Shown here one piece after another: positions 21,189-42,484 of a stretch of DNA of 55,301 bases. Positions within the stretch are counted from its first letter, which is position 1; each line of letters opens with the position of its first letter. The notes beneath the pieces are model-generated. The model worked only from the letters and a program-made list of their open reading frames with translations. It was not told where the DNA came from and made no database searches. The position numbers were made by a program, and so were the translations under genes. The stretch is from Candidatus Roizmanbacteria bacterium RIFCSPHIGHO2_12_FULL_37_23 (lineage in GTDB: Bacteria; Patescibacteriota; Microgenomatia; UBA1406; HO2-37-13b). The DNA is taken from the NCBI GenBank assembly GCA_001788095.1, contig MFZX01000038.1:1-55301 (forward strand), in the 5' to 3' direction.

Positions 21189-21189
21189 T

Positions 21190-24140: not shown

Positions 24141-24704
24141 TTATTCCTCGCTATACAATTCCGCCATATCTAGCAGGTTTACGCATCCATCCTGATTAAC
24201 ATCGAGTGCAGGATCGAATCCTTCATCTTCCTGACAGAGCCATAAAGCATCTTCGGTAAATGAATTAAAACTAAGTGAGAATAATCGGTTATCAGGCGCA
24301 GCAGGTATATAGGCTAATGTTGGACTTGCTAGTCCTGTGTGTATTCGTACATAATAACCTGTTCCTGGATTAAGATTCACAGGTGGATCGAGGTCTTGGT
24401 TTGAAAGATCATGAGTAATTGTTGCTTTGGAATCTTCTGCACATCTAAACTGCGCTCCATCAATACCAATTGAACAGTCAACTGTAGCGCGTACCTCTAG
24501 GTCTGTCACGAATGAAATTCTAAATCCTGTTCCTGAAACCCTCTCAGTCGTAATATTGGTCGGTTTAGAAGCAAATTCTGCTTTTGGTCTGAAGCGTGTA
24601 ACGACAAAAGCACTAACAACTAAAAACGGAAGCAGTACAACCAAAAGAACGATTCCTAAAAGTCGTTTATCAGATTTCAATTTTAACAAAAATTCTTTTC
24701 CCAT
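24141..24704 (-). CDS. TM-anchored FN3-like domain protein with a single dockerin/EF-hand loop
   Basis: ISFVTD...LNPGTGYYVRI; DVNQDGCVNLLD. Confidence 0.55.
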   Translation of the reverse strand: MGKEFLLKLKSDKRLLGIVLLVVLLPFLVVSAFVVTRFRPKAEFASKPTNITTERVSGTGFRISFVTDLEVRATVDCSIGIDGAQFRCAEDSKATITHDLSNQDLDPPVNLNPGTGYYVRIHTGLASPTLAYIPAAPDNRLFSLSFNSFTEDALWLCQEDEGFDPALDVNQDGCVNLLDMAELYSEE

Positions 24705-25553: not shown

Positions 25554-25622
25554 ATAAGAGATGGTACATGATACCGGCGAATTAAACAAGAGGTTCGGAT
25601 CGGATATGGTATGATAAAAGAT

Positions 25623-28208
25623 ATGGTAAAGGATACAAAATCTATTCATGGTGAAGTTGCAACAGTCCTTACCTTAATCGCTCTTTTGGTCACAAGCATT
25701 GGTCTTATTATTGGATATCAAGCCACACAATACGCCAGTTCTTTTCAAAGAAATTCTCAAGCTTCTGAACAATTTATTCCTTTACCCTTTAATATCAATC
25801 TGGAAAGTATATTGCGTTCGCATGTCGAAGAAGATGATAAAAACAATAATGAACCTGTCATCACCGAGCCTGTTAATGTTCACAGCGAAGTTTGTTTTCC
25901 AATGGGAACACGAGGTAATGCTGTTATCGACCCATACTGTAGAGGAAGACTCTACCCTAACCAACTTGATGACCTCATTGAGAATGGTGGAAGTAATGTA
26001 CGCGCTATCTTTAATAGACTTGGAAGAGATGAAAACAATCCTAATCCAGCGATCGTCGCAACAACTCGGGGAGATCAAAGAACTATTAATATATACGGTT
26101 CTGTGTGCTTAAATGATAATTCATTGGGAAGAAGTAGCGTTATCCCAACAGAAGGTACAAAAATCTTCTTAAGTACATTTTCTGTACGAAAATACGCAGA
26201 TGAAGGTGGAAACATTGGGGTTGTACCTAACGATATAAACACAGCACTCGAAGGACTTGTCGCAAGCGCAGAAGATAAGCGAGGATCAGCTCAAGATACA
26301 CTTGCACTTGTTCACGAGGATCAATCAGTGTGTACTTTCACCAACGGACGTGATTCTTATCAAAATCTCGGAAACCCACTTATTTTCAACATCCAGTTTT
26401 CAGTGAGCCAGCTTGTTGAAAAAATTGAAACAATCGGTGGACGATCATTTAGACGTCCTGACAGGACGTTTGATACAAAAGAATGTAGCGTCTATGTGCA
26501 CTTACGATATAACGGACGAGGTGATGGACCAAAAGATACATATAACCTTATACGCATTCACCTTGCAGATTTACTTGAAAAGCCTGATCTTGATCGTATT
26601 TGTCCTGGAGCTTCACCTACTCCAACATATACTCCTACTCCAACACCATCTGATACACCAACCCCTACACCAACTATCTCAGTAACTCCAACTGATACGC
26701 CCACGCCAACTATTACATTAACACCAACCATAACATCAACGCCAACTATTACACCTACTCCAGAACCTCGAGTATGTACGTTTGAAGCGCTTGCTTTTGT
26801 ACAAGAATGTACTGAGTGGGAAAATGAAGAACTGGCCATATGTAAAAAGGATCAGAAAGGACACTTGATTGGTAAACCAGTCGTTTTACCCCAATATTCG
26901 CAAAATACCCAACCTCCTCAACATACTCTCGAATTCCCCTTATGGTCAAATACCAATAATAAAAGCGCACGAAGCGGCAAGATTATTTTTTATAACAACC
27001 CTCCAGTAAGCCCCAAACCTCTTGCTGGATTATTATCTGGTGAACCAATAACAGCAACGTATTATGGAACTAACAATTATAATATAAGCCCGTATCTTCC
27101 AGGCGAAGATGCACATGTATCTATAACCATAGATGGTGACCGGTATAATTTCCTCCCATCAGGAGGTAAGGAAATACGTATGTGTGAAAATAAAGACATT
27201 GGTTTAACTGGAACTGATGCATGCAATATAAATGCATTTGAACAGAATCGTAGTGATGTTGATACTGTTCACGGTCTTACTATTAATTGTGGACAAGACA
27301 TCGTGTATGGATGGACTTTGCAAAAATGTCAGCAGGTCTTTGATTATATTTTTGTCGTGGATACTTCTACATCAATGGCAAACTTCGATGATCCTTTTTA
27401 TGGAAAGCGCAAAATTGAAGTGCTAAAAGACAATCTCACAGGTTTTATAGATAATATAAGTAGAAGTACCGTCGACAACAGGGTCGCACTTATACAATTT
27501 AATAAAATGAGCGCTGTAAGAAGTTCTTTTTCAAGAGATTTTAATGGTTTGCAGGATATAGCGCGCAATGGACTTATTGTGAGAGAGGGAACGTGTATTG
27601 AATGCGGCATTGATGAAGCTCGAAATCTTATTCTAAGTCGCGCTGACACCTCAAGAAAACCAGTGGTTATTATACTCACTGACGGTCTTCCTAATAGCAA
27701 CCCGGGTGGGGCCGGGCCAGCTGAGGGATACATACCCGGTGTTCTTAGAGCTGCAAACCGACTTAAAAGTATTTCGGACATAACCATTGCTTCAATTGGA
27801 TATGGAGATCCTCTAAAAGCTGGTTCGGATATACGTGAACTTCCCAGAGCACAGTTTTACGAGACTATTATTAAACCAATTGCCACCGATGAAACATGGG
27901 CTTTCTCAACTGACACAAATCGAGCACAACAAGCAGGCACAATAAATGAAATTTATTCTAAGATTGGTGACCGACTCAATTCATGCGCGGTAAGTAGACT
28001 CAATTATGCACGATATGTAAAATCAAAGGATCTTAACGATGATGGAATTATTAACTCAGTAGATCTTCTTCTTATTTTCGAAGCTTATTTTCAACAAGGT
28101 AATAATCTGTCAGAAGATATTAATGGTGATGATATCGTAAATTCTCTCGATTCCTCACTCATTTTCCTTGATTATGGACAAGAAATTGATTTGCTTCTTG
28201 ACAAATAA
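25623..28208 (+). CDS. large prepilin-like surface protein with VWA domain and C-terminal dockerin
   Basis: HG|EVATVLTLIALLV; PT repeats; YIFVVDTSTSM MIDAS and ILTDGLPN; DLNDDGIINSVD / DINGDDIVNSLD. Confidence 0.75.
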   Translation: MVKDTKSIHGEVATVLTLIALLVTSIGLIIGYQATQYASSFQRNSQASEQFIPLPFNINLESILRSHVEEDDKNNNEPVITEPVNVHSEVCFPMGTRGNAVIDPYCRGRLYPNQLDDLIENGGSNVRAIFNRLGRDENNPNPAIVATTRGDQRTINIYGSVCLNDNSLGRSSVIPTEGTKIFLSTFSVRKYADEGGNIGVVPNDINTALEGLVASAEDKRGSAQDTLALVHEDQSVCTFTNGRDSYQNLGNPLIFNIQFSVSQLVEKIETIGGRSFRRPDRTFDTKECSVYVHLRYNGRGDGPKDTYNLIRIHLADLLEKPDLDRICPGASPTPTYTPTPTPSDTPTPTPTISVTPTDTPTPTITLTPTITSTPTITPTPEPRVCTFEALAFVQECTEWENEELAICKKDQKGHLIGKPVVLPQYSQNTQPPQHTLEFPLWSNTNNKSARSGKIIFYNNPPVSPKPLAGLLSGEPITATYYGTNNYNISPYLPGEDAHVSITIDGDRYNFLPSGGKEIRMCENKDIGLTGTDACNINAFEQNRSDVDTVHGLTINCGQDIVYGWTLQKCQQVFDYIFVVDTSTSMANFDDPFYGKRKIEVLKDNLTGFIDNISRSTVDNRVALIQFNKMSAVRSSFSRDFNGLQDIARNGLIVREGTCIECGIDEARNLILSRADTSRKPVVIILTDGLPNSNPGGAGPAEGYIPGVLRAANRLKSISDITIASIGYGDPLKAGSDIRELPRAQFYETIIKPIATDETWAFSTDTNRAQQAGTINEIYSKIGDRLNSCAVSRLNYARYVKSKDLNDDGIINSVDLLLIFEAYFQQGNNLSEDINGDDIVNSLDSSLIFLDYGQEIDLLLDK

Positions 28209-28216
28209 ATTGTAGT

Positions 28217-28816
28217 ATGGGTAGAATGAAGAGCATGGATGACGTTTCAAAAGACATTAAGGATTTTCACAAGCTGAATCCTAATAGAAAACTTGCTATT
28301 CTAGGAATCTTTCTTTTCGTTTTCGTTTCTGCAATTCTCATCGGCGTTTATCTTTCTAAAGGTAAAACTTCACTTCCTTCATTACAAGAAGGCACAACTC
28401 AACAAACACAGGAGGCTGATAAAACAACTCTTTCTATGACGTCAAGCGCAACAGAAGTTGCAGTTGGTGACACTGTAACAGTAACCGTAGCACTCGCACA
28501 AACTCCTGTACAAGCAGTCGATTTGGTTGTGAATTTTGATCCAACCATGTTCAAAGCTTCAAATGTTGTAAACGGTACCGTATATGATGATATTTTGAGA
28601 AGTGAGGTTAAAGACGGACAGGTTGTTGTATCAGCTACAGTAAGTCCAAGCGATCCAACAAACTTAAAAACCGGTGACGTATTCACATTTACACTTCAAG
28701 CTCTTAAAGCTGGAAAAGGAGTACTTGAGTTTGATCCTAAACTTACAATTACCGCGAAAAATGGTGTGAATACATTAGGAACTGCTGGAGGAGCAACGAT
28801 CACAGTCGCACGATAA
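28217..28816 (+). CDS. TM-anchored single cohesin protein
   Basis: VGDTVTVTVAL...VQAVDLVVNFDP...VFTFTLQAL...LEFD. Confidence 0.75.
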   Translation: MGRMKSMDDVSKDIKDFHKLNPNRKLAILGIFLFVFVSAILIGVYLSKGKTSLPSLQEGTTQQTQEADKTTLSMTSSATEVAVGDTVTVTVALAQTPVQAVDLVVNFDPTMFKASNVVNGTVYDDILRSEVKDGQVVVSATVSPSDPTNLKTGDVFTFTLQALKAGKGVLEFDPKLTITAKNGVNTLGTAGGATITVAR

Positions 28817-28827
28817 TACGCTGTAAC

Positions 28828-31782
28828 ATGAAATTAGACAGTCGATTCAATCAAAAAGGCGAAATTGCCACATTATTGACCATTGTTTCAATGGTCGTTA
28901 TTGCGTTTGGACTCTTTGTGGGATCACAGGTAAGTCGTCAGGCTGGTCCTATCAATGTTCCCCCACGAGCCGCAGGACCTTCACCAACTCCAAAAATATT
29001 CAGCCTTATTACAGTTCCGGTTCCCGAACACGACGAAGCATGCTATCCATTTGGAGATACAGACAATCCGATCTTTGATCCATTTTGTCGAACACGACTA
29101 TACCCTGGCTCTTTTAGAACTGTTGAAACAGTAGTACGATCAACACAGGATGAATTAATAAAACCTGTGCGTAACGCAAGTGTCCCAGCAATAGTTTTTA
29201 ATCCTCTCAATTATAGTGGGAGTGGTCCTCAATCTATAGATGTTTATGGTACTCTGTGTTTAAAAAGAAATACAGGTACGGATACGAGAAATTTCAACTT
29301 GGGAACAGCTGATCTGTACATGAGTCCATATGCAGTGCAAAAATATGTAACTGAAGATGGTGAAATAGGTATCGTTCCTCTTGATATGACAAAAGCTCAA
29401 AAAGTATTAAAGAGCGCACAGGACTCTGATGGAACGCTTACTGTTGCTCGCCCAGGACAAGAGGTCTGTTCGTTCCAAGGTAATGATCGAGACAATCCTG
29501 TTTACGATGAAAGTAAATCTCGCTATCAAGCAAAAAACAATCCATTACTATTCAAGATTCATCTTGAGAGAAGTGATTTTATTCGAGATATTGAAATTGC
29601 AAAAAATGATACAAGCAGACCTTATAATACTGAAGAATGTGCTGTTTATATTCATCTTGAGAGGGATGGAAAACTCGATACGTTCAATATATTAAAGATT
29701 GATCTGGAAGATTTGGTTGGAGAAGAGGAAAAAAATAGATTATGTCCCAAAGATACACCTACACCAACTCCTCCCACAGAGACTCCAACCGAGACACCCA
29801 CAGAAACACCTACGCTCACTCCTACAGAAACTCCCCCTCCTCCCTTTGAAGCTGCGTGTTATGAGGAATGTAGTGTAAGAGATCCTCAAATAACGTGTAG
29901 AGATGAAGTAATTCCTGGAAAAGGACCACTTCGATGTTATGAAGTAGAAACAGATATCACACCTACTCCTCCCCGATTCCCAGCGGATGATACTTCGGAT
30001 AGCTTCTCAGAAGATCGAAGTGGACGCGGACCTTCTGGAACTGGTCCTCAAGTAGTAGGTAACTGTACAGCGAGTTCTGCTGAATGTCTTTGTCTTCCAA
30101 CATCATGCGCAAGTGGTGATGACTGCTCATCGCCAAAACTTGCTTGTGAACCACCAACGACTACGCCAACAGACACACCTACACCAACAGAAGTTCCTCC
30201 TCAAGCATGTACATATAATGCGATAGCTTATATTCAAGAGTGTGCTGATTTTGATTTTGCGCAAAACATATGTAAATCTGCAAAGCCACTTGAACCTACA
30301 GAACTTAGAAATGCAAAAAAATGGGGCATTGCAAACAACCTACAGATCAAAAATCGTGGAGACGCGCTTGTCGATCCTGTTCTCCCACCGCATCCGTTGG
30401 TAGGTACAAAGTTTAGAAACTTGAGGACCGAAGTAGACAGTAGAGGAACGACTAGAGATTTCTTTGCGAGACCAGTTGATGTCTCATTTAATCTGCTTCC
30501 TGGACAAAATCCAACTGATCTAGGAAAAGATAGTGGAATTAAAATCTTTGAACCAAATGACAATTCTCCTGAAGATTCTCCTGAAGCTGAAAAGTACTTT
30601 AATGGTGAAACTGCCTTTTCACGACTTTACTTAGATGAAGATGAATATAGGATTATTCCAAATAAAGGAAGTTACCCAGGAAATGCGATTCTAAGATGTG
30701 ACAATACTCATGGGCTTACAGCGTGTAATACAGAAGGTAATAGTCCTGTGGATACACAAGCATCACTCACTGATATCGGCAACTTCAATGTACAGTGTGG
30801 AGACGAAATCTTATATGGCTGGACTGTTCTAAAATGTATCGATAAACCACTTGATCTTGTGTTTGTGGTTGATACGTCATCTACAATGTTAGACAACACA
30901 GACAACAAGGGGGTAAAAAGAATTGTTGCTGCAAAAGCAATTCTTCAAGATTTTGTTGAAAACCAGCTCGCGTCATTTAATAATATAAATCAAATAGGAT
31001 TAGTATCGTTTAATAGAGATGCCCGCGTTGAACTTCGCTTAACACCAAAAGAAAATACTTACGCAATTCTTGATATACTTTCAGACCCGAATCGTCTACA
31101 GAACCAAGAATTTACTGAGATTGATGAAGGTTTGGCTCTCACTGATGAAGTCTTCACAAATGCAAATACAGAAAAAGTTATTATTCTTATAACCGATGGT
31201 GGGGTCAATCCATGCCATACTCGCTATGGATGCCCACCTCTTGATCCACAAAATGATGCTCGAAGAGTGCTTGTTGGGGAACAAAAACTTTACGACATTG
31301 CGAACAGATTAAAGAATACTCAAGGAAGAGTCATTATTTCAATGGCGATTGGTAACGATAGTGATAAAGTAACCTTTAGACCTGATATTCTCGGAAAAGT
31401 CGCTTCGTGTATTGATGGTAGTGACTGCCCAAGCAATGATCAATTTAGATACAATGATCCAAACTTAGGCTTGGTTCTTGAAAAGAAGCACTATTTGTCT
31501 AATCCAAATGCTACAACAGTTACAGCTGTTGTAGATGGTCTTATTAAAGGACTTAACACCTGTAACCTTATGCAAGCTAACTTTGTGAAATCACTTAAGT
31601 CTAAAGATGTTAACGGTGATGGAATCATCAATAGCGTCGATCTATTCCTCATATTTGATAATTACTTTGCTCAAGGTGAAAACATTCCCGAAGACGTTAA
31701 TAGCGACGGAATTGTGAATTCTCTTGATGTGACTGAGATATTTGCTGACTATGGTACGGTAGTTCCAACGGAAACCAAGTAA
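28828..31782 (+). CDS. large prepilin-like surface protein with VWA domain and C-terminal dockerin (paralog of 25623)
   Basis: QKG|EIATLLTIV; LVFVVDTSSTM, ILITDG; DVNGDGIINSVD / DVNSDGIVNSLD. Confidence 0.75.
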   Translation: MKLDSRFNQKGEIATLLTIVSMVVIAFGLFVGSQVSRQAGPINVPPRAAGPSPTPKIFSLITVPVPEHDEACYPFGDTDNPIFDPFCRTRLYPGSFRTVETVVRSTQDELIKPVRNASVPAIVFNPLNYSGSGPQSIDVYGTLCLKRNTGTDTRNFNLGTADLYMSPYAVQKYVTEDGEIGIVPLDMTKAQKVLKSAQDSDGTLTVARPGQEVCSFQGNDRDNPVYDESKSRYQAKNNPLLFKIHLERSDFIRDIEIAKNDTSRPYNTEECAVYIHLERDGKLDTFNILKIDLEDLVGEEEKNRLCPKDTPTPTPPTETPTETPTETPTLTPTETPPPPFEAACYEECSVRDPQITCRDEVIPGKGPLRCYEVETDITPTPPRFPADDTSDSFSEDRSGRGPSGTGPQVVGNCTASSAECLCLPTSCASGDDCSSPKLACEPPTTTPTDTPTPTEVPPQACTYNAIAYIQECADFDFAQNICKSAKPLEPTELRNAKKWGIANNLQIKNRGDALVDPVLPPHPLVGTKFRNLRTEVDSRGTTRDFFARPVDVSFNLLPGQNPTDLGKDSGIKIFEPNDNSPEDSPEAEKYFNGETAFSRLYLDEDEYRIIPNKGSYPGNAILRCDNTHGLTACNTEGNSPVDTQASLTDIGNFNVQCGDEILYGWTVLKCIDKPLDLVFVVDTSSTMLDNTDNKGVKRIVAAKAILQDFVENQLASFNNINQIGLVSFNRDARVELRLTPKENTYAILDILSDPNRLQNQEFTEIDEGLALTDEVFTNANTEKVIILITDGGVNPCHTRYGCPPLDPQNDARRVLVGEQKLYDIANRLKNTQGRVIISMAIGNDSDKVTFRPDILGKVASCIDGSDCPSNDQFRYNDPNLGLVLEKKHYLSNPNATTVTAVVDGLIKGLNTCNLMQANFVKSLKSKDVNGDGIINSVDLFLIFDNYFAQGENIPEDVNSDGIVNSLDVTEIFADYGTVVPTETK

Positions 31783-31784
31783 TT

Positions 31785-32612
31785 GTGAAACCAACTGCTA
31801 CGACATCTGTTTTATTACTCTCAATGCTCATCTTTATAATATTGGTTCTCGTAGCAGGTGTTTCGTTTCTCAGAAGTGGAAATTTCCTAAGCACGAATCC
31901 ACGCGCACAAAATCAAGAAAATATTACATCAAATACCTTTTCCCTACCCCAGTGCCCACTTCGTATAAATATCCATGTTAAAGAAGCCACAGAAGACGGC
32001 GAGGAAATACTTTTACAGATGTCCGATGTTCGCGAGGATGATGTTCAATGGGGATTTGTGGATGCCTTACACACTTCTACCGGAGATAGAAAAGCGATTT
32101 CATTTAATCATGATACATATGTCCAATATTCTATGTACGCGAGCGAATTATCATTTGTGCCTTTTCCTGAAGTAGATGAGGTTTATGAGGAGGGCTCAAA
32201 TACGTTCGTACGTTTTTTGTATAACCAAAATAACTTTGATATTTTGAGAAAAGAAGTAATTCGATGCAACTCAACAGAAAGCGAACAATGGCTATGTAAG
32301 CCAGATCTACAAGAAAATTTAGACACTATTTCTGGAATAACGCTTAAATGTAATATGGATTTAGACCTTGGATGGGTTGTTTTACGAAAATCGGAAACTG
32401 TTCAAAATACTTCCTCATTTTCCAAAAATCGTAAAGCCGTGTTCAAAACGTGCGATTTGAATGACGATAGTGCATGTAACACTATTGACCTCCTTATCGT
32501 GCTGGAATCGTATGGCAAACGCGGCTCAGATACTTCTGTAGCAGATCTCAATAATGACTCTCGAGTAGATGCGCTCGATTACACAATTGTCTTTGACCAA
32601 GTAGTAAACTAA
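31785..32612 (+). CDS. TM protein with the shared CGxDxxYGW-type domain and a dockerin
   Basis: ITLKCNMDLDLGW; DLNDDSACNTID / DLNNDSRVDALD. Confidence 0.7.
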   Translation: MKPTATTSVLLLSMLIFIILVLVAGVSFLRSGNFLSTNPRAQNQENITSNTFSLPQCPLRINIHVKEATEDGEEILLQMSDVREDDVQWGFVDALHTSTGDRKAISFNHDTYVQYSMYASELSFVPFPEVDEVYEEGSNTFVRFLYNQNNFDILRKEVIRCNSTESEQWLCKPDLQENLDTISGITLKCNMDLDLGWVVLRKSETVQNTSSFSKNRKAVFKTCDLNDDSACNTIDLLIVLESYGKRGSDTSVADLNNDSRVDALDYTIVFDQVVN

Positions 32613-32632
32613 TAAGCTAGCCTCAGCTTCGC

Positions 32633-32663
32633 CTCAAATCCCACCTCGGGAGTGGGATTTGAG
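32633..32663. repeat. REP palindrome, left of RAYT
   Basis: ctcaaatcccac-ctcggga-gtgggatttgag. Confidence 0.85.
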
Positions 32664-33323
32664 CTTGGAGTTCGACTTTAGCCTCTTTTGATAGTCCGCT
32701 CTATCTAAAACGAATTTCATGTATGAATCTCTGTTTGAAAAATAAGACAAAATTTTCTCTGTAGCTATTAAATCGTCTTTCTCCTTGCCAGAATAGAAAG
32801 AAAGCGATGAATATTTATATTGCAGAAGCTCTTCAGTTGAAGACAAGACTCCTGAACTATAAGGATTGAGATGAATATAGGCAGAAGTGTGAATAAATTG
32901 TTCTCTAGTTTTAATATGTTGGGTTTTAAACCTACCTTGATATAGAGGCCCAACTCTTTCTATCGCTGTATTTAGATAGCGAGCATAACTATTCTCAAAA
33001 TTTGACATAAATATAGAAATACCATGATCGGATAATTGTTTGAGCTGAAAATGAAAATGATTAGGCATTAATACAAAACTTAAAATTTCAACGTGGAATT
33101 TCTTTTCTGAGCGGGTTTTATCAAAAAGTACTTGCTGCTCACAGGGTGGTAATTTATTAAAATCTGATAACTTCATAGGTAGATTGACATTTTGATAAAA
33201 AAATATTGCTTTATAAGCTCTCTCGTATGATTCTCTACCTGAAAAAATCTTTTGGCGATTAACACCTCTATTATAGACGTGATAATATTCTCCTTGAATT
33301 AGTGGAATCTTTCTTCCTGGCAT
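32634..33323 (-). mobile_element. REP-associated tyrosine transposase (RAYT, IS200/Y1 family)
   Basis: YYHVYNRG, FVLMPNHFH (HUH), YQGRFK, YIHLNP; flanked by two REPs. Confidence 0.88.
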
Positions 33324-33378
33324 TTTCGCTAATATATCAGAAAGTTATTAAATTTCTATTAGAGCCCCGTTATTCTGC

Positions 33379-33409
33379 CTCAAATCCCACTCCCGAGGTG
33401 GGATTTGAG
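33379..33409. repeat. REP palindrome, right of RAYT
   Basis: ctcaaatcccac-tcccgag-gtgggatttgag, exact reverse complement of the left copy. Confidence 0.85.
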
Positions 33410-33538
33410 CTTAAACGAGCTTAAATGAAGCTTGACTTCCGTTGTTTTCTTCTCTACTATGAAGATATACCACTACGCCCCGATTCAATCGGGGCTACGT
33501 TAGGTATAGCCAATTTTTACAATAAAAGTGGTATAGGC

Positions 33539-36500
33539 ATGAATAGAAAACAAGGCTCCATTTCTGGTCTTCTGCTTGCAGGAATTAGTGTTGTTGCAAT
33601 AATTACTGCTGTAGCTGGTTTGCAGTTGAACAATAGAAGTCTCAATAAACAAGTTGAGGCTGATACTATGACTGCAGATGCTCGCTTAATAAAAGACAGC
33701 GCTACATTAACTAAAATTAAAGACAATCAAATACAAATTAGGGCATCATTTTGTTATGCTCAGGACTTACGATCAGGTGGTAGAGAGGAATGGCTTGTTT
33801 TCCCGAACTTATCTAACGGATTTGTACTTGAGGATGGGAAAACGAGCGCACATATTGATTCGGGTAAAATATATACGGGAACGGGATTTCCGGCATCGTG
33901 TGAATACTCAAATAGGGATACAGGTGAAGCTGATTATGACGCTGAGCGTGGGCAGTATTTTACTGTGACTGCGACCTTTCCCCAACCATTAAACAGCGAT
34001 TATTGTCCTGACGTGTATCTTGGGTATAAAGGTTTTTGGTTTCAAGATACTAACCGATTCGCAAAAATCATTTTAAAAAATCACGAAAACATCTGCACTC
34101 CAAAAGTGGTGCCTTCAGCAGTACCCAGTGCACCTGTAGCAACAAACACTCCTACGCCCTCACCCACCACACCCCCTGTTGCAACAGGCTCTATAGAAGG
34201 AAAAATTTCGGTTTATGCATGCAGTCAACCCGATGCAGTCCAACTTATTTACTGTGAAAACGCGACGTGTAATTTGAGTTCGCCCTTACGTAGTTCGGGG
34301 ACTTCTCCACAAGAACACGGCATTTGGTTGACTGATTCCAATGAAGATAATACATGGATTTACCAGTATAAGATCTCCAAAAATTCAAATGGTGAAAATC
34401 TTTCCCCGGAAAAAACGTATGAATTTAAGGGTGCTCGAGCTTATTTTGCTAATACACCATATTGGTCAGAAGGCGAGGATCCTCAAAATAAACTTCGTGT
34501 GAAAACTGGAGATAAAAGAGACTTTACTATAGATGCACAGAAAACATGTGGTTGTCCATTTAACGCAGTTTCTTATATTAAAGATGTGAATGGTAATTAT
34601 ATTTCAGCTCTTGATGGTAAACAAGGCCTTGCTGGGACGCACAACAATAAACAGCGTTTTGAAAAAGGAGATTTTCCTGTTCCTAACTTCCCTTTCAATC
34701 ATCTTGGAAATAATTCAGGTCGAATCGACGTACATTATACTGACCTTGGCGATTTTATGAGTGTGAGAAGTTTTGGTCATGACGCGCTCGCTTCTGTAAA
34801 GCTTATTGCACCAGGATACAAAGTCCTTCGCCAAGAATGCAAGAGTAACAATCCAGATGTCTCCGCTTGCCCTACGTACAAGAATAGCTATTCAGCCTCT
34901 GCGCAAGAGCTTATCCAACCGGAATTATTCCAAAACCTACGCGTTACATGCGGTACGGATCTCGATTATGGCTGGATAATAGAAGCAAAACCAACACCAA
35001 CCCCACAACCAAGTAACAAAGGTGAGCTTGAAGTTGCTGTGTTTGTTACAACAGATGGTAGAGCCCCAAACAGTTGTCATCTCAGAACACTACGAGATAC
35101 TGTTGGTGGTAATTCAGCATGGTTCCGTAGTGGATGTGAGATGAAACTTACTAACAAAAATACAGGTGAAACATTTGAACAAAATATTAAATCTTACAGT
35201 GATAAAAAGGGTCAGGAATCTGGCGGATGCGTTGGGTATAATTTTAGCAATTTACCTTTTGGGAGATATGAGTTAGAAATCAGCGTCGACCATGAAAGTA
35301 GATTGGATATTGCCAAACAATGTACAAGAGATGAACTTCCGGCTCCTTATTACCGAATGGACAATATTGAGATTACTAAAGGTGAAGATGCTCGAAATAA
35401 ATCATATACTGCGGTTGTTTATCAGCCTGATAGAGATAAATGTGAACTTAATGTAACTACTGGCGCGATTTGTGACCAGGATGGTGGAGACAAAATCGTT
35501 CGTTTAGGACCTTCTAGCTTCCTCTGCTGTATAGAAGAAGGAGGGAGTGGTGGAGGAGGCGGAGGCGGAGGTGGCGGAGGTAGCTCTGGGGGCGTGTGTC
35601 CACAATGGTGTGCTACTCCAGAATATTGTAGAAGTAGAGGTTTTGAACCAAGAGGACTCCCCCAAGGTGAATCATGTGGTGGTAGCAATGAACAATGGTG
35701 TTGCCCTCCGGGGACAGAGCTCCCAGGAGGCAGTGGTGGTGGCGCTGACCTGCCAGGTTGCTGCGATAGAAGCTTAGGCAATAGCCAATGTCCGAATGGA
35801 CAAACATGCTCCATTTCAAATGGTAGTTGCAGAAACGGTTTTTCATGCGATCCTGATTCTGGATCCGGTAGGGGGCCGGGTGGAGGTGCTGGACAATCAT
35901 GCAGTAATGGCCAAGGGACATGTAAATCTGCATGTGGATCAGGTGAGACTCCATTCCAAGGACCAGGTTTATGCAGTACAGGATTAACATGCTGTGGCAC
36001 CACTTCCACTGAGAGACCAGCGCAATGTGGACTTATTTATTCAAATGCAGGTACATGTAAAAGAGAAACATTGTGTCCATCTGATTGCATAGGTGCATCA
36101 GGCGGTGGATATCAATGTTGCAGATTTGCAACAAGAGAGGGTCAATGTAGAGCTGTAGGAAGTGGCAGATCAGCATGTAGCCAATGTGACGAATCTCGTG
36201 AGGACTGCACTGTTGATAACGCTTCAAACGCGGCGTTCTGCTGTCCGGAAGCAAATCAGCAACAAGAAACACTCCCCTGTTCAAATCCCATAAAATCATA
36301 TGGGAAAGATACTGGAGCATTTGTACAATGCATGAGAGATTCTGCATGTTCAGATGGAATTTGCAGCGCAAGTAATGTTGGAAGCTGGTTCTGTTGTCCT
36401 AAGAACCAACCGCCCCCACCTCCACCATCAAGCGGCGGATGTGAAAAAACTGGTTATGGAGCACATGAAATTCCACAATGCCATGATTATTGTGCGGGAA

Positions 36501-37000
36501 AAGGAAAAACATGCAGAATATTTAGCGAACCAGAAAGAAGTGGTTTATATTGCTGTGGTGAGGAACCTCCTTCAACACCACAACCACGTCAACAAGAATT
36601 TTGTACCAGTATGAATTTCGCATATAGAGAAAGAGGCAATGAGGCAGCAGCGCAAGAAACGTGTTCTTCAGTTTGCCGAGAATTTAGCTGTACTGAAAAA
36701 AGGGTCACTTATTTTTCAGATTACCGACCTGCGCACTGGTATTGTTGTGTGAAGTATATGGGAAGAGGATTAGCTTCTACTGAATCTTTAGATATTGATA
36801 TTAAAGATATGGATTTCGACGATAATCAAGTTATCAATAGTCTTGATGTTCTTTTTGTCATAGAACACTATGCGCAAGAAACAGTGCAAATCAAATCATT
36901 AGAATATGAAAAAACGCCTGACCTCAATCATGACGGTACCGTCAATGCTCTCGATATTACGTATGTTATAAGTGCATTTGGAACTGAAGTTGGAAATTAG
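33539..37000 (+). CDS. giant prepilin-like surface protein with Cys-rich repeats and dockerin
   Basis: Start moved to MNRKQG|SISGLLLAG; poly-Gly linker; nine Cys modules; DFDDNQVINSLD / DLNHDGTVNALD. Confidence 0.75.
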   Translation: MNRKQGSISGLLLAGISVVAIITAVAGLQLNNRSLNKQVEADTMTADARLIKDSATLTKIKDNQIQIRASFCYAQDLRSGGREEWLVFPNLSNGFVLEDGKTSAHIDSGKIYTGTGFPASCEYSNRDTGEADYDAERGQYFTVTATFPQPLNSDYCPDVYLGYKGFWFQDTNRFAKIILKNHENICTPKVVPSAVPSAPVATNTPTPSPTTPPVATGSIEGKISVYACSQPDAVQLIYCENATCNLSSPLRSSGTSPQEHGIWLTDSNEDNTWIYQYKISKNSNGENLSPEKTYEFKGARAYFANTPYWSEGEDPQNKLRVKTGDKRDFTIDAQKTCGCPFNAVSYIKDVNGNYISALDGKQGLAGTHNNKQRFEKGDFPVPNFPFNHLGNNSGRIDVHYTDLGDFMSVRSFGHDALASVKLIAPGYKVLRQECKSNNPDVSACPTYKNSYSASAQELIQPELFQNLRVTCGTDLDYGWIIEAKPTPTPQPSNKGELEVAVFVTTDGRAPNSCHLRTLRDTVGGNSAWFRSGCEMKLTNKNTGETFEQNIKSYSDKKGQESGGCVGYNFSNLPFGRYELEISVDHESRLDIAKQCTRDELPAPYYRMDNIEITKGEDARNKSYTAVVYQPDRDKCELNVTTGAICDQDGGDKIVRLGPSSFLCCIEEGGSGGGGGGGGGGGSSGGVCPQWCATPEYCRSRGFEPRGLPQGESCGGSNEQWCCPPGTELPGGSGGGADLPGCCDRSLGNSQCPNGQTCSISNGSCRNGFSCDPDSGSGRGPGGGAGQSCSNGQGTCKSACGSGETPFQGPGLCSTGLTCCGTTSTERPAQCGLIYSNAGTCKRETLCPSDCIGASGGGYQCCRFATREGQCRAVGSGRSACSQCDESREDCTVDNASNAAFCCPEANQQQETLPCSNPIKSYGKDTGAFVQCMRDSACSDGICSASNVGSWFCCPKNQPPPPPPSSGGCEKTGYGAHEIPQCHDYCAGKGKTCRIFSEPERSGLYCCGEEPPSTPQPRQQEFCTSMNFAYRERGNEAAAQETCSSVCREFSCTEKRVTYFSDYRPAHWYCCVKYMGRGLASTESLDIDIKDMDFDDNQVINSLDVLFVIEHYAQETVQIKSLEYEKTPDLNHDGTVNALDITYVISAFGTEVGN

Positions 37001-37002
37001 CG

Positions 37003-37046
37003 ATGTGTGAAGTACATCACACCTGACATGTGTGAAGTACGAAAAT
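37003..37046. repeat. REP-like GTGTGAAGTAC family, tandem copy
   Basis: atgtgtgaagtac at 37003 and 37028, then gaaaatt. Confidence 0.6.
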
Positions 37047-37047
37047 T

Positions 37048-39795
37048 ATGAAAACTATGAAAACTGAAAAAACCAAACAACAGAGACAACGTGGTGCTAT
37101 TTCTCTCCTTGCTTTATTTGCTCTTGTTGTTATAGCTGTAGGTTTTGTTGCTGGTCAAAAACTCGTACAGAATACCCTTAATACACGATCATTCGCAGAT
37201 ACTGAATTCATACATTTGATACCTAATCGTGATATTCAGAGTGAATTAGAAGATCCCATTCGTTCAAGAACCTGGGATTATATTTTGGGAGGTAATCTTT
37301 GTTTCACTTCTAATCCCCCATCTGCAAATGGTAAATTCCGAGTAGAACTCTCCATGAGATTAAAGGATAAAAACAACCCCGCTAATATTGTTGAGGAAAT
37401 TATTGGAGCGTCTGTGTCAAAACTCGTGACTCATCCTGCTACACTACGCTGTAACTCTGCAAATCTGCGTAGCGCAACGTTTAACGCGCCCTTTAACATT
37501 CCTGAAAAGGAGAGATGGCTTGAAGAATGTCCTGAAATCAGCGTAAAAGTAACAACAGAAGGTAACTGGCGTCCATTGCCTCAGCAGGAAATTGCAACAA
37601 TTGATAGATCTCTTCTATGCCCCAATGGCGTACCCACACCGATAACCCAACCTACAGCACAACCCACAACACAACAACCTGGAGCACCAACTCAAGTGCC
37701 ACCTACAGCTCAACCATCAATCGCACCAACATTAACACTAACACCTACACCCCCTCCTGTGTATATTACTGGACGCATTACGGTCTTAACCTGCGTTGAA
37801 CCGAGCAAGGTACAAATAACCTTATGTGATAAGATAAATTCCAATAAGTGCACAGACGTACCTTTTACATCTGGTCCCTCCACTCACGGAGTGTGGCTTA
37901 ATGATACTAGCAATGATAAAACCTATCTATATTCTTATAGCATAGCTTTCGATCCAAATGGAGATGCTCTGGAGCAAGGAAAAGAATATACCATTCATAG
38001 CGCAAATGCATTGGTTATTAATAAACCTTATGTATCTGAAAAAGAAGATAATAAAACTGTTTCTGCTGGAACAACTCAAGATCTAACGATTTTTGCTCAA
38101 GGAAGAACATGTCCTTGTCAATTCCATGCTATTTCAAATGTTTATGTTCGTGACAATAATGGAAACCTTACTAAAACAACAGATCTTGACGGCGGCAATA
38201 CAAAAGGATCAACAAATGATATACAAGTTATCAGACTTGATAATCCCACTGGTGACCCACAATATAGAGGCAGAGTAGTTTCACCCTTTAGAAACGGATC
38301 GCTGGATGTTTCCATAGATTTTGCTGCTGTTGATATCAATAATGATATTGACTTCATTTATGGACCATATGGAAGAGATGGTTTAGCATATGTAAGACTT
38401 TACGCGTCTGAATACGATGTCGTTGGTCAAATTTGTACTAGTACAGGTGGTATTCATGCATGTCCAAATGAATCGTATGAATGGGGAAAAAATTTCCCAG
38501 AAAAAGCAGAAACCAATAAGGATTTCTATGGTCTAAGGGTTACTTGTGGAACGGATATTTCTTATGGTTGGATACTGGAAAAAAAGCCTATACAAGCTTC
38601 ACCAACACCCATACCTACCATCTTACCATCGACTACTCCCCCACAAGCTAGTGACGATGTATTTTCTGATAAAACAGGCACTATGAAGGATGATTCTTGT
38701 ACCCCACGCGGATTTGAGGTTACTGAGGTTAAAAATTCAGGAACCGGTGTTAATTTCGAATGGGAAAGATTAACAAATTGTTCTCAGTTTAAAGATGGGA
38801 CAGATAGATACTGGATACTTATTAAAAACAGTAATGGTGTAATTGTCGCTTCAAAAAGAGGTATGAAAGATAATGATACTGACGTGAAAATTTCAGAAAA
38901 ACAGCGAGGTATTCTTCCCCCAAACATCCAAATAGCAGACGATAATGAATTTAAAGCTGGTGAACGCTATACTGCCTATCTCTATGCTTATCAAGATGCC
39001 AACGAACAAAACATAAGTAAACCTGATGCGGCGTCATTCACTGGTGTAGGTAGAAGTGGTGACGGCGGAGGTGGGGGTGGAGGCGGCGGTGGAGGTGGTG
39101 GTGGCGGAAGCGGCAGCGGACAATTTAATTCCTTTAATATGATACTTATGGATGCCGATGCTCAAGATGCACAATGTTATGCTGCTACCAACGGAAGTGG
39201 TAATCCTATACATGACCAAGGAACACGCAATCATTCAAAAGGTCAATATACCTGCGGATACAACATAGGAAATAACCAAATAACAGTTGGCTTCAAAAAC
39301 AACAGTATGAGAGGCTCACAAGATCCTGCTATCCGAAACAAAGATGCGATCCGTATTATGTGGCAAACACATCGTTGTGCCGATGGCTCACTCCCCTGCC
39401 AAGATAACGAAGATGGTGTTGATAGAATGACTGAAGCAGCTGATTGGTGGTGTCTTAATCCGGGGCAGGATATCAGCTGCACATGGGATACCACTAAGTG
39501 GAAATCTAATCCGCCTGCTGTACGATGTTTTATAAATGACCAGGAAGTCACATCGAGACGGAACTGTGTCTATAGCGGATTTACTACGCTTAATGGACAA
39601 GGCATTACTATTGATTTCAAAAAAATGGATTTCAATAACGATAAAATAATCAATACAAGCGATTTAATAGTCTGTCTTGATGAATATGGAAAGAACGGAT
39701 CTAATTTACAATGCGATTTCAATAAGGATAATGCTGTAAATGCACTTGATTCGTCAGTTATGATTTCTTCCCAAGGAAGCGAAGTGGAAGATTAA
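37048..39795 (+). CDS. large prepilin-like surface protein with FN3-like segment and dockerin
   Basis: QRG|AISLLALFALVV; FEWERL...YWILI...YTAYLYAY; poly-Gly; DFNNDKIINTSD / DFNKDNAVNALD. Confidence 0.75.
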   Translation: MKTMKTEKTKQQRQRGAISLLALFALVVIAVGFVAGQKLVQNTLNTRSFADTEFIHLIPNRDIQSELEDPIRSRTWDYILGGNLCFTSNPPSANGKFRVELSMRLKDKNNPANIVEEIIGASVSKLVTHPATLRCNSANLRSATFNAPFNIPEKERWLEECPEISVKVTTEGNWRPLPQQEIATIDRSLLCPNGVPTPITQPTAQPTTQQPGAPTQVPPTAQPSIAPTLTLTPTPPPVYITGRITVLTCVEPSKVQITLCDKINSNKCTDVPFTSGPSTHGVWLNDTSNDKTYLYSYSIAFDPNGDALEQGKEYTIHSANALVINKPYVSEKEDNKTVSAGTTQDLTIFAQGRTCPCQFHAISNVYVRDNNGNLTKTTDLDGGNTKGSTNDIQVIRLDNPTGDPQYRGRVVSPFRNGSLDVSIDFAAVDINNDIDFIYGPYGRDGLAYVRLYASEYDVVGQICTSTGGIHACPNESYEWGKNFPEKAETNKDFYGLRVTCGTDISYGWILEKKPIQASPTPIPTILPSTTPPQASDDVFSDKTGTMKDDSCTPRGFEVTEVKNSGTGVNFEWERLTNCSQFKDGTDRYWILIKNSNGVIVASKRGMKDNDTDVKISEKQRGILPPNIQIADDNEFKAGERYTAYLYAYQDANEQNISKPDAASFTGVGRSGDGGGGGGGGGGGGGGGSGSGQFNSFNMILMDADAQDAQCYAATNGSGNPIHDQGTRNHSKGQYTCGYNIGNNQITVGFKNNSMRGSQDPAIRNKDAIRIMWQTHRCADGSLPCQDNEDGVDRMTEAADWWCLNPGQDISCTWDTTKWKSNPPAVRCFINDQEVTSRRNCVYSGFTTLNGQGITIDFKKMDFNNDKIINTSDLIVCLDEYGKNGSNLQCDFNKDNAVNALDSSVMISSQGSEVED

Positions 39796-39796
39796 T

Positions 39797-40396
39797 ATGA
39801 AAAGCCTAGCTCAAATACTTGTATACGATGTTCGTGATTTCACAACGCTAAGTCCTCAAGTAAAATTCCTCCTTAGTATTCAACTCATCATCCTTTTTAT
39901 ACTAAGTATCCTTGTTGGTGTACTTTTTTCACCTAAATTTAAAGCGCAGGTACAACAGCAAAACGTTATACAACCATCACTTGTTGAAGAACAAACAGCG
40001 ACTTTATCATTTGAGCCAAAAGATATTATTTTAAAATCTGGGGAAGAAAAAAGTGTCTCTATTTTACTCTCAGGAAAACCAGCAAGTGCTGTTGATATAG
40101 TCTTATCATATGATCCTACATTACTTCAGATAACCAACATGACAAACGGTGATGTCTTTGATCAAGAAATTATCAACAAACAATCTCGTGGAAAAATTCA
40201 GTTCTCTGCGGCTCGCTCTGCTACAACTGCACAACAAAAAGAAGGTATCGTAGCAACTATGAAAATCACAGCTTTAAAAAAAACAGGTTCTACCGCTACC
40301 TCAATTAGCTTTATTAAAGACGAGACTATTGTTGCAGAAAGTGGTATAAATATACTAGGTCTTATGAATGAGGCCGTTGTACGAATATTTGATTGA
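39797..40396 (+). CDS. TM-anchored single cohesin protein (paralog of 28217)
   Basis: 199 aa; ASAVDIVLSYDPTLLQI...VATMKITAL...ISFIK. Confidence 0.75.
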   Translation: MKSLAQILVYDVRDFTTLSPQVKFLLSIQLIILFILSILVGVLFSPKFKAQVQQQNVIQPSLVEEQTATLSFEPKDIILKSGEEKSVSILLSGKPASAVDIVLSYDPTLLQITNMTNGDVFDQEIINKQSRGKIQFSAARSATTAQQKEGIVATMKITALKKTGSTATSISFIKDETIVAESGINILGLMNEAVVRIFD

Positions 40397-40408
40397 GAAT
40401 TAAAGATT

Positions 40409-42484
40409 ATGAGACTCCATACTACAAATAGCCGGAAGGGTGAAATCGCAACATCATTGACGTTTCTCGCGTTATTTGTCATAACGCTCGGTGTTTTTAT
40501 TGGCTCATCTTTAGTAACAAATCCGTCACAACAGACCACAGAAACACAGGCATTTGCACCTGAAGGAATTACTGATCTTGGTAATCGGCATATCAATGTA
40601 ACATATGAAGGAACACCTCGAAGACGAGACATTAACCCTCGACATGATATTGTTTCTGGAACGCTATGTTTTAATACAGTCACGCCCCCACAATATGGTA
40701 TATATCAAATCGAAACAATACTTGAAACACAAAGCGGACAAGAATATAAAATTGGATCTGCTATGGAAGAGCGTATAACTTCCCATCCAAATATATACGA
40801 GTGTAGTAGCCCAAACTCACGACCTCGACCATTCTCAGCAATTTATTGGAATAATCTCACAGATATTTCTGACAAGGTTGCGTCTGCATCTATAAGTTTT
40901 GCAGATGTTAAAGAGATAAGACTCCAAATGGCCATAAAACAAGGTACATGGGGTTATCGCTCAGAAGAAATTCCTGTAAAATTCGCAACACTTAATAAAG
41001 CCCTTTTTGTAGCAACGACTCCAGGTCCTACATCTACACCAAGTGCAACACCAACCACTGGACCTGCGCAACCTGCTGATGTTGAGGCGAAGGTAACAAT
41101 AAATGGTGAGCTCAAACAAGGATTTAATAAATTTGATTACATAATCGAAACATGCAATCTAAAAGCTGATGGGACCATTAATATTAGCGATTGCGGTAAA
41201 GGCGATAATAAAAGCACAGGTAATATAAGTGCTTCTGGCCCTTTCCCATACAACTCTTCACACACATTAAACGGAGTTGGAGGTGGTGAGCGTGGAATCG
41301 TGCTTTTTTATGGTTATTACACAGCTGATGGCAAGAAGGACGTTACAGGAGTTGTCGTGAATCGAGAATCTGGGCAATGCTCTGGTGTGTTGATAAATCC
41401 TGTCGGAGGAGATTTCAGATGCAAAATCACCGTAAATGGTCAAAAAATTGTTCAAGAATTCAATATAACATTACCTGATAAAAATGCACGTACATTTGAA
41501 CTCTTTTATGGAAAGGAAACCGATGCTAAACGCCTCCTGCAGAATTGCTCGATGACAGCTGATACGCTTAATAGTTCAAAAAACAGCGCTTCATCACCCT
41601 GTTCAGCTCAATTTGCCGATAACACCATTACATTAAACTATACAAATACATCTGCATCATCAAGTGCTGAAAAAATCTATTGGCAACTGCGTCGATGTAA
41701 CGGCAAACTCGATCAAAACTTTGAACATTGTATTAGAAACCAAACAGCACAAGGAATAGATATTGATAACGAGTTTCAGGAAGCATCGAGCTCTGCAATT
41801 CAACCACGACAAGTACGAACGTGTACTTTTAAACTTTCAGACTTTCCAGCAAATGAAACAGAGGAAAATATAAGAAATCTGTTTACCAATAAATGTACAA
41901 CTGCAACACCGAGTAATACACCCACACCATCGCCATCACCAACAGGAACAGCAGTCGTTGAAAGTTACTACGCAACTTTTGCCATCTATAACAATACACG
42001 AAAAAGCATATCTACAGTAAAAGTGAAAACGTGCTATGGTACAGCCCCTTGCACCACTGAATCTATTAATGCTTCAATTAAATCTACGCAGAGAGGTGTT
42101 GTCGAATATGAAATGAAGCTTCCATCAGGTGTTACATCATACAAAGTAGGATGTTCAATCATATATCAAGGAGAGTCACAAGACATAGCATGTCCGGACG
42201 AAGTGAGCACAACTATAAAACAAAATATTATTTATAAAATGGTAGCGCATGAAAACTCACTTACAGGAGGTGGTTTTACTGAACTTCAGGCAAGTGATGT
42301 AAATAGTGATGGTTGTACTAACGGAAGCGACTTCTCAGAAGTAACGAATCAATATGCCTTTGAAGTACCACCTACTGTTGTTAATAAAGGTGACATTAAC
42401 GGAGATGGAATCATTAACTCGCTTGATATCATATATACGCTAGAAAACCTTAATAAAGGTGATTCGTGTGCTTTTAATCAGTAG
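40409..42484 (+). CDS. large prepilin-like surface protein with dockerin
   Basis: RKG|EIATSLTFL; DVNSDGCTNGSD / DINGDGIINSLD. Confidence 0.75.
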   Translation: MRLHTTNSRKGEIATSLTFLALFVITLGVFIGSSLVTNPSQQTTETQAFAPEGITDLGNRHINVTYEGTPRRRDINPRHDIVSGTLCFNTVTPPQYGIYQIETILETQSGQEYKIGSAMEERITSHPNIYECSSPNSRPRPFSAIYWNNLTDISDKVASASISFADVKEIRLQMAIKQGTWGYRSEEIPVKFATLNKALFVATTPGPTSTPSATPTTGPAQPADVEAKVTINGELKQGFNKFDYIIETCNLKADGTINISDCGKGDNKSTGNISASGPFPYNSSHTLNGVGGGERGIVLFYGYYTADGKKDVTGVVVNRESGQCSGVLINPVGGDFRCKITVNGQKIVQEFNITLPDKNARTFELFYGKETDAKRLLQNCSMTADTLNSSKNSASSPCSAQFADNTITLNYTNTSASSSAEKIYWQLRRCNGKLDQNFEHCIRNQTAQGIDIDNEFQEASSSAIQPRQVRTCTFKLSDFPANETEENIRNLFTNKCTTATPSNTPTPSPSPTGTAVVESYYATFAIYNNTRKSISTVKVKTCYGTAPCTTESINASIKSTQRGVVEYEMKLPSGVTSYKVGCSIIYQGESQDIACPDEVSTTIKQNIIYKMVAHENSLTGGGFTELQASDVNSDGCTNGSDFSEVTNQYAFEVPPTVVNKGDINGDGIINSLDIIYTLENLNKGDSCAFNQ

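Follow-up and report, generated by a model that had tools for sequence, protein, structure and literature searches.

Bacterial type IV pilins carry a class III signal, in which a hydrophilic leader ending in Gly is followed by 21 mainly hydrophobic residues, with Glu almost always at position +5 (Glu5) (PMC4471445, PMC8179133). This tract forms the N-terminal half of a helix that is about 50 residues long and whose C-terminal half packs on a globular head (PMC4471445, PMC8179133). We analyzed a stretch of 55,301 nucleotides (the window) that corresponds to contig MFZX01000038.1 (C38) of Candidatus Roizmanbacteria bacterium RIFCSPHIGHO2_12_FULL_37_23. The genome of this Microgenomates bacterium of the Candidate Phyla Radiation (CPR) comprises 1.09 Mb at 37.6% GC and is 95% complete. 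The window encodes five large adhesin-like surface proteins, P1 to P5, that begin with a module resembling a class III signal in form. Structurally, they are not type IV pilins, and nothing here ties them to a pilus tip. We consider it probable that the module is specific to this lineage and serves to anchor in the membrane and to sort the adhesins of a cohesin-dockerin system, and it may represent an undescribed way of sorting surface proteins.

Five large proteins share a pilin-like N-terminus

In all five proteins, a basic leader ending in Gly precedes a 21-residue hydrophobic tract. The N-terminus of P1 reads MIKDMVKDTKSIHG/EVATVLTLIALLVTSIGLIIG, where the slash marks the bond between Gly at -1 and the residue at +1. 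That of P3, counted from Met 33539, reads MNRKQG/SISGLLLAGISVVAIITAVAG and that of P4 ...QQRQRG/AISLLALFALVVIAVGFVAG, the latter with a score of 40.9 bits on profile A1 (described below); P2 and P5 are given in Table 1. The tract runs from +1 to +21 and closes at Gly+21, with polar residues from +22 onwards. Position +5 is occupied by V, L, L, L and S in P1 to P5, and Glu is found there in none. Glu stands at +1 in P1, P2 and P5, Ser in P3 and Ala in P4; orthologues of P3 in related genomes keep Gly-1 and carry S, T or N at +1.

A preliminary description of this DNA, made from the sequence and a list of its open reading frames (ORFs), had quoted the five N-termini, and its readings agree with ours to the letter. 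One start needed correcting: the ORF of P3 was listed from 33425, whereas Met 33539 is the more sensible start, and the extension carries no signal. The class III-like layout without Glu+5 on five large proteins was borne out as well, as was the Glu at +1, described as unusual, in three of them.

The module consists of a basic leader of 5-20 residues with [KR]-Gly at its end, a helix of 21 residues, a polar spacer whose length is fixed and a near-invariant Ala at about +37. In the main type, the helix follows the pattern E-[IV]-A-T-x-L-T-x-x-S-x-x-x-M-x-x-G-x-x-x-G. Behind the module, P1 to P5 continue with a chain of beta-sandwich domains, joined in some by a von Willebrand factor A (VWA) domain or a Cys-rich region, and end in a C-terminal dockerin or dockerin-like repeat.

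The module is conserved and precedes unrelated domains

Twenty-nine further large ORFs, in 16 loci of relatives, begin like P1 to P5. A profile of 35 columns built on the G/E[IV]AT motif (A1) found the module in 22 of the 25 genomes of the same GTDB family, with 1-8 copies each; in nearly all cases the module opens an ORF of 300-1800 aa. Among 401 genomes sampled from the class, 32 have it, and three other families are represented. A HMMER scan of 1.84 billion representative proteins with A1 returned 116 clusters at E<=1e-3; the match lies almost always within residues 1-45 of a protein of 300-1600 aa. Conservation on this scale (22/25 family genomes, 116 clusters among 1.84e9 proteins) rules out chance resemblance.

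The position counts that follow are upper bounds because profile searches favor profile-like sequences. Gly-1 is present in 114 of 115 clusters, the sole exception being Ala, and Glu+1 in 113 of 115, the remaining two having Asp. A basic residue stands ahead of Gly in 98/114 clusters (86%), within leaders that have a median length of 10 residues and a mean net charge of +2.6. Leu+6 and Thr+7 reach about 90% each and Ser+10 70%, while Gly+17 and Gly+21 are found in 114 of the 114-115 clusters tallied. Position +5 is T, L, I or F in 114 clusters. The conserved helix positions (A3, L6/T7, S10, M14, G17, G21) lie on the same side of the helix; the conservation moment has its maximum at 100 degrees, and 630 of 20,000 shuffles attain that value.

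Two further counts are unbiased because the features lie outside A1. An A[AQ] motif occurs at +35 to +38 in 58 of 115 clusters (at exactly +36 in 31 of them), and 49 of the 75 clusters of at least 450 aa end in a dockerin-like C-terminus. Once aligned, the column near +37 is at least 90% Ala, and this near-invariant residue corresponds to A48 of P5. The Ala (P2, 28969-28971; P5, 40550-40552) lies at a fixed distance from the helix and is a possible second recognition site.

The regions that follow the module are unrelated among its carriers and include Cys-rich repeats, chains of immunoglobulin (Ig)-like domains and VWA domains. At the level of sequence, such unrelated ectodomains behind a conserved module are the behavior of a sorting or anchoring signal. 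Every named module protein is annotated as "hypothetical protein". The closest database relative of P2, P0001, has the same N-terminus, and a word-indexed homologue search with residues 1-330 of P2 gave a single match; the family is therefore rare in that index. A first contig search for related loci returned nothing, and a second, alignment-based run recovered only the dockerin pattern in unrelated phyla. We conclude that N-termini of the G/E[IV]AT type form a conserved module of about 48 residues that is uncatalogued and matches no curated model.

Pilin models, predicted structure and gene context

The N-termini of P1 to P5 matched no N_methyl, PilX_N, TadE-type or archaeal class III model of Pfam, even at E<=10, while in the same search two canonical pilins of the genome scored 38.3 and 22.7 bits on N_methyl and an ORF on another contig (C31:48159) scored 31.2 bits on PilX_N. 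The NCBIfam models, TIGR02532 included, gave nothing for P1 to P5 at E<=1. None of 95 N-termini of the family matched N_methyl or PilX_N, and two of the 95 gave noise-level Tad matches.

The AlphaFold2 (AF2) model of full-length P5, built with its orthologues (7-sequence alignment), shows a helix that spans residues 11-36, then low-confidence coil over about 40 residues and finally beta domains. Modeling the first 70 residues with 62 family sequences yielded a helix at 10-36, with a per-residue confidence (pLDDT) of 91-98, again followed by coil. Q, T, S and N abound in the spacer and Pro is often present, a composition that agrees with the predicted coil. The predicted helix stops about 25 residues after Gly, and the second half of a pilin helix (alpha1-C) and the pilin head are absent from the models. 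Foldseek searches with the P5 model retrieved no pilin and only multi-Ig-like chains (alpha-2-macroglobulin/complement C3, the sortase-pilus adhesin SpaC) at TM-scores of about 0.1. A profile search of the PDB with the module likewise gave no meaningful match and no pilin.

The genome does encode type IV pilus machinery. There is one Peptidase_A24 gene (PilD, C25:16155-16925) of the bifunctional type, which also has an A24_N_bact domain, as well as two PilB-like ATPases, one PilT-like ATPase and two PilC-like platform proteins. The ATPases and platforms fall into two operons, on C35 and C9, that include PilM/N/O-like genes and small canonical pilins. About ten canonical pilins of the genome read G/F-T-L-[IV]-E. 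One of the operons also contains a Glu5-less protein of 448 aa (C35:34301, MKKDLG/SAAILI...) with a weak PilX_N match of 16.2 bits. All other basic-Gly-hydrophobic N-termini in the genome belong to canonical pilins or to the PilX_N protein.

The module genes keep apart from these operons. In 33 genomes, the positions of about 75 module genes were compared with those of pilB and pilT, and none was closer than 30 kb; the shortest distances are 34-38 kb (in G003 and G014). PilD was found in 33 of 35 module-bearing genomes. Two candidates for module carriers without pili were rejected. In G020, PilB and PilC are absent, but so is RecG, which neighbors the pilus operon in the sister genome G015; because RecG is absent too, the absence appears to reflect a region missing from the assembly and not gene loss. 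The 938-kb single contig of this genome (G020:C1, genus g7) encodes PilD and one pilin, with PilB, PilC and RecG not found on it. In G004, PilB, PilC and PilD are absent but 8 N_methyl pilins are encoded, which points to a gap in the metagenome-assembled genome.

Some relatives carry the helix without the pilin-like start. In three genomes of the sister genus g7, the P5 orthologue starts 4-7 nt after the cohesin stop codon with MKTLSLAV... and aligns from module position +4; GxxxG and the spacer are kept, the leader, Gly and Glu are all missing, and upstream extension is ruled out by a stop codon. A protein of 482 aa from the genome under study (C43:29406, ..KKIALTLGAFVIITLGSIAGIQVLRNNLDIREQAAGPSC..) also has the GxxxG helix and spacer without leader, Gly and Glu. 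Both it and a 279-aa protein (C31:42364) combine a GxxxG helix and a polar spacer with an ..EQAAG or ..PEAAG motif and then Cys, and neither has the leader-Gly-Glu start. The g7 orthologues and C43:29406 thus indicate that helix and spacer exist without the pilin-like start and can work without a prepilin peptidase site.

The preliminary description had taken P1 to P5 for interchangeable, very large tip pilins of the PilX/GspK/TadG type that carry dockerins. Its dockerins hold up, by Pfam in P2, P3 and P5 and close to the cut-off in P1 and P4. The tip pilins do not, given the missing N_methyl, PilX_N and TIGR02532 matches, the lack of linkage to pilus genes and the leaderless orthologues. Structure prediction, suggested there as a check for a pilin alpha1 helix, yields in the AF2 models a helix that gives way to coil after about 26 residues, and not one of about 50 residues on a head. 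Minor pilins of the PilX/GspK type combine a PilX_N match with a location among pilus genes, and P1 to P5 have neither; modular pilins carry the pilin module IPR012902, which is absent from P1 and P2 even though both have a VWA domain. The reading as giant tip pilins fails four defining or expected features of pilins. As to the machinery, the observation that the window holds no pilus ATPase or prepilin peptidase gene is correct (T2SSE, T2SSF and Peptidase_A24 matches are absent from C38), but a genome without pilus machinery, which the description named as a refutation of its idea, is not what we found, as pilB, pilC and pilD genes are present on C35, C9 and C25.

A probable membrane anchor for cohesin-dockerin adhesins and its alternatives

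We propose that the helix inserts with its N-terminus inside and its C-terminus outside via the signal recognition particle and Sec, and that it retains or sorts the protein in the membrane. The small and polar face of the helix (A3, L6/T7, S10, M14 and G17xxxG21) would pack on a partner helix. The dockerin could plug into the neighboring small membrane-anchored cohesins or into the nearby wall-anchored cohesin-like protein, and anchors, cohesins and dockerins together would form a cell-surface display system.

Several points weigh against a plain anchor. An N-terminal helix and a C-terminal dockerin would fix both ends of the protein, which is an odd topology. The AF2 models were built on shallow alignments, and the N-terminal domain of P5 is of low confidence. 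Modular pilins with a VWA module exist (PMC8179133). The invariant Gly-1 with Ala as the only substitute, the basic residue at -2 in most clusters, the short variable leader and the tract of exactly 21 residues are class III hallmarks that a passive anchor does not obviously need, and they are hard to explain by it. Ala is the only residue besides Gly that is allowed at class III sites (PMC8179133). The same signature is otherwise confined to pilins in this genome, and nearly all module-bearing genomes encode PilD. When the module was aligned with the pilins of its own genome by hhalign, Gly fell on Gly and Glu+1 on the pilin Glu+5 via a 4-residue gap, at a probability of 17.7%; this register is suggestive but too weak for a claim of homology. 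It is a real possibility, although we would stop just short of expecting it, that PilD cleaves the leader after the invariant Gly. Trimming would leave an N-terminal Glu that could be cyclized or methylated, and by analogy this invariant Glu could play a role like that of the N-terminal Gln of Methanococcus, which is converted to pyroglutamate.

If P1 to P5 were true modular minor or tip pilins, PilD would cut after Gly, PilB and PilC would load the 21-residue helix into the core of the pilus, and the pilus tip would show VWA, Cys-rich or Ig-like modules and the dockerin. We regard this as improbable, even though the class III format recurs in more than 100 clusters and the genome has the full machinery. 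It is also true that Streptococcus sanguinis has, in PilB, a pilin onto which a VWA module is grafted and that modular pilins are widespread, CPR included (PMC8179133), and that Glu5 is dispensable for cleavage and subunits lacking it can co-assemble into filaments (PMC4471445). However, the models predict a short helix and about 40 residues of coil where a pilin module should be, pilin profiles that recognize the controls leave P1 to P5 unmatched, linkage to pilus genes is absent in 33 genomes and some orthologues have no leader. The pilus operons moreover own a large Glu5-less minor pilin (C35:34301), in addition to the PilX_N protein on C31, and a dockerin for membrane-proximal cohesins would make little sense at a pilus tip. 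PilD might instead trim the leader so that type IV pilus-type machinery, with the hydrophobic N-terminus as a handle for assembly, organizes these non-pilin proteins within the envelope and not into a pilus. This bindosome-like arrangement would account for a class III format on large proteins without a pilin fold and has a precedent in the sugar-binding proteins GlcS and AraS of Sulfolobus, whose class III signals are cleaved by PibD and whose function depends on the Bas ATPase and platform (PMC3047682, PMC4471445). The conserved face of the helix would also be suited to helix-helix assembly. Yet that precedent comes from archaea, the module genes have no additional ATPase/platform pair of their own beside them, and some orthologues lack the leader. 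Furthermore, we know of no precedent for Glu at +1 of a prepilin peptidase site, and we hold this arrangement to be quite improbable.

Very doubtful, too, is a long Sec-type signal that signal peptidase I or a dedicated protease would cut on the outside near the Ala at about +37, with dockerin-cohesin binding alone retaining the protein, like that in cellulosomes. The near-invariance of an Ala at +35 to +38 at a fixed distance from the helix agrees with it, as does the first Cys of the mature domain, which follows within 10 residues in 43 of 84 A[AQ]-bearing clusters. The genome has a gene for a LepB-like signal peptidase I on C29, and dockerin proteins elsewhere carry cleavable signals. But the site lies about 15 residues past a 21-residue h-region, far from the usual reach of the enzyme, and departures from the -3/-1 rule are frequent (K, R or E at -3, Q at -1). 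In P2, RAAG is followed by Pro, as is AFA in P5, and Pro directly after the site blocks signal peptidase I, which is thus an unlikely agent at the conserved Ala. Ordinary Sec signals in this genome are short (e.g. ..SSSAYA/A), and the invariant Gly-Glu would be left unexplained. A further reading strikes us as conceivable though still unlikely, namely a Microgenomates-specific class III-type signal in which PilD cuts at Gly/Glu and the Glu, as the counterpart of Glu5 after loss of F-T-L-I, is cyclized or methylated. The helix would then be the handle of a bindosome- or pseudopilus-like array that mounts interchangeable cohesin-dockerin adhesins, and a second processing step at the Ala near +37 might occur. 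The membrane anchor and sorting module remains the reading we favor.

Organization of the locus and neighboring genes

The proteins are encoded in a block of genes, mostly in one direction, at 24.1-42.5 kb of the window (Table 1). Judged by domain matches, type I dockerin repeats would reside on the cargo proteins and cohesins on anchored partners. With Pfam cut-offs of 22.9 bits for Dockerin_1 and 24.1 bits for Cohesin, P2, P3 and P5 score above the former and P1 and P4 slightly below it; Pfam also identified VWA domains in P1 and P2. Cohesin protein 1 has an N-terminal membrane anchor without the Gly-Glu motif, and the small dockerin protein has an ordinary N-terminal anchor with no basic-Gly. 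The order of cohesin protein 2 and P5 is conserved in genus g7. An internal domain ending in C-G-x-D-[IL]-x-Y-G-W is common to P1 to P5 and the small dockerin protein (31785-32612, where it reads CxxDLDLGW) and matched no Pfam family.

The divergent secreted protein upstream of P1 bears a weak cohesin-like domain (Pfam Cohesin 16.4 bits, below the cut-off). It is accompanied by a 187-aa anchored protein with a dockerin-like tail of 15 bits (24141-24704, minus strand). The combination suggests a wall-anchored socket of the same cohesin-dockerin system. Between the small dockerin gene and P3 lies a 229-aa REP-associated tyrosine transposase (RAYT/IS200-like, MPGRKIPLIQGEYYHVYNRG..., 32634-33323, minus strand), and the frame of P3, which is open upstream to 33425, reaches the flank of this element. 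Directly downstream of P5 (42830-45835, plus strand), three genes encode a 7TM_transglut membrane protein, an ATPgrasp_ST and Zn_protease fusion and a RimK-like ATP-grasp protein; together they resemble a peptide-ligase or modification cassette. Another small cohesin/dockerin group (48532-52477, minus strand) comprises a cohesin protein (27.1 bits), EF-hand/dockerin-like and Fn3-like proteins and two unassigned secreted proteins. The stretch at 10000-22800 has a GC content of 0.41-0.47, compared with 0.376 for the genome, and its minus-strand genes are unusual: they encode proteins of 1292 aa (13619-17497) and 1180 aa (17516-21058) and include several ORFs rich in Arg and Pro. The stretch is a possible acquired island.

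Table 1. Features of the surface protein locus, with positions in the window. A1, profile of the N-terminal module; the slash follows the Gly at -1.
Feature	Position	Strand	Description and evidence
Divergent secreted protein	24711..25553	-	Classical Sec signal (..SSSAYA/A), PT-rich stalk, LPATG sortase signal
P1, 865-aa surface protein	25611..28208	+	Alternative start 25623; N-terminal module, beta-rich domains, PT linkers
P1 N-terminal module	25611..25763	+	Leader MIKDMVKDTKSIHG, 21-residue tract EVATV...LIIG, polar spacer; A1 53.6 bits
P1 VWA domain	about 27348-27812		Pfam VWA_2, 1.4e-13
P1 C-terminal dockerin-like repeat	about 28026-28160		Dockerin_1 17.5 bits, under cut-off
Small cohesin protein 1, 199 aa	28217..28816	+	Pfam Cohesin 34.7 bits (cut-off 24.1)
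P2, 984-aa surface protein with N-terminal module	28828..31782	+	Translation, Pfam
P2 N-terminal module	28828..28971	+	MKLDSRFNQKG/EIATLLTIVSMVVIAFGLFVG, polar Pro-rich spacer ending RAAG (Ala at +37); A1 59.9 bits
P2 VWA domain	about 30853-31209		VWA_2, 5.4e-14
P2 dockerin	about 31603-31737		Dockerin_1 25.1 bits
Small dockerin protein, 275 aa	31785..32612	+	Dockerin_1 23.4 bits
P3, 1153-aa surface protein	33539..37000	+	S-type N-terminal module, long Cys-rich region
P3 dockerin	about 36809-36973		Dockerin_1 34.6 bits
P4, 915-aa surface protein	37048..39795	+	A-type module; translation
P4 dockerin-like C-terminus	about 39625-39765		Dockerin_1 22.2 bits, slightly under cut-off
Small cohesin protein 2, 199 aa, membrane-anchored	39797..40396	+	Pfam Cohesin 38.3 bits; directly upstream of P5
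P5, 691-aa surface protein	40409..42484	+	Module and chain of beta-sandwich domains; translation, AF2
P5 N-terminal module	40409..40552	+	MRLHTTNSRKG/EIATSLTFLALFVITLGVFIG, spacer SSLVTNPSQQTTETQAFA (Ala at +37)
P5 dockerin	about 42293-42430		Dockerin_1 30.3 bits

Significance and comparison with known systems

CPR bacteria, or Patescibacteria, live attached to other cells, and no other part of their small genomes is as poorly understood or as lineage-specific as the surface proteins. The module, found on more than 100 clusters of large hypothetical proteins, is a simple marker of the surface proteome in Microgenomates and could become an annotation profile. If PilD processes it, the substrates of bacterial prepilin peptidases would widen to Glu+1 and the system would be a bacterial counterpart of the archaeal bindosome; if not, the module would represent a novel kind of conserved membrane anchor whose partner is yet to be found. 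In either case, a basic-Gly-hydrophobic pattern alone should not be used to call pilins.

The class III pilins and pseudopilins (N_methyl PF07963, TIGR02532, IPR012902) share with the module a basic leader, an invariant Gly and a 21-residue tract with one conserved acidic residue, and a peptidase is encoded in the genome. The acidic residue is at +1 in the module, whereas it is at +5 in pilins, and the conserved positions differ: A3, L6, T7, S10, G17 and G21 in the module compared with F1, T2, L3, E5, G14 and P22 in pilins. Unlike pilins, the module is unmatched by the models, its helix ends at about +25 without a head, and its genes are unlinked to pilus operons. The modular pilins PilB and PilC of S. 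sanguinis (PMC8179133) resemble P1 to P5 in being large proteins with a pilin-style N-terminus and adhesion modules, including a VWA in PilB as in P1 and P2. PilB, however, has a Glu5 signal and a crystallographically defined pilin module, whereas P1 to P5 are without a pilin module and add a C-terminal dockerin. Minor pilins of the GspK/PilX type (PilX_N PF14341) are also large, with a basic-Gly start and no Glu5, and P3 and P4 (QG/SISG.., RG/AISLL..) look alike to them by eye. The PilX_N model nevertheless matches C31:48159 and, weakly, C35:34301, in or near pilus operons, and none of P1 to P5.

Closer in concept are GlcS and AraS of Sulfolobus (PMC3047682), large non-pilin surface proteins with a class III-type signal without Glu5, whose hydrophobic N-terminus, like that of the module, is regarded as a handle for assembly or anchoring. 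They are archaeal and processed by PibD and have a dedicated Bas ATPase/platform operon; no such operon was found here. The pilin of Methanococcus maripaludis, as cited in PMC4471445, has a Gln at +1 that becomes pyroglutamate, and thus shares a cyclizable residue right after the cleavage-site Gly (Gln there, Glu here). Those pilins are small and archaeal and, according to the work cited there, their processing is demonstrated, whereas the parallel for our module would be one of analogy. With cellulosomal and non-cellulosomal cohesin-dockerin systems, the locus shares C-terminal type I dockerin repeats and small anchored cohesins encoded alongside. Cellulosomal dockerin proteins carry enzymes and have ordinary cleavable Sec signals, whereas P1 to P5 possess adhesin-like domains and a conserved membrane helix.

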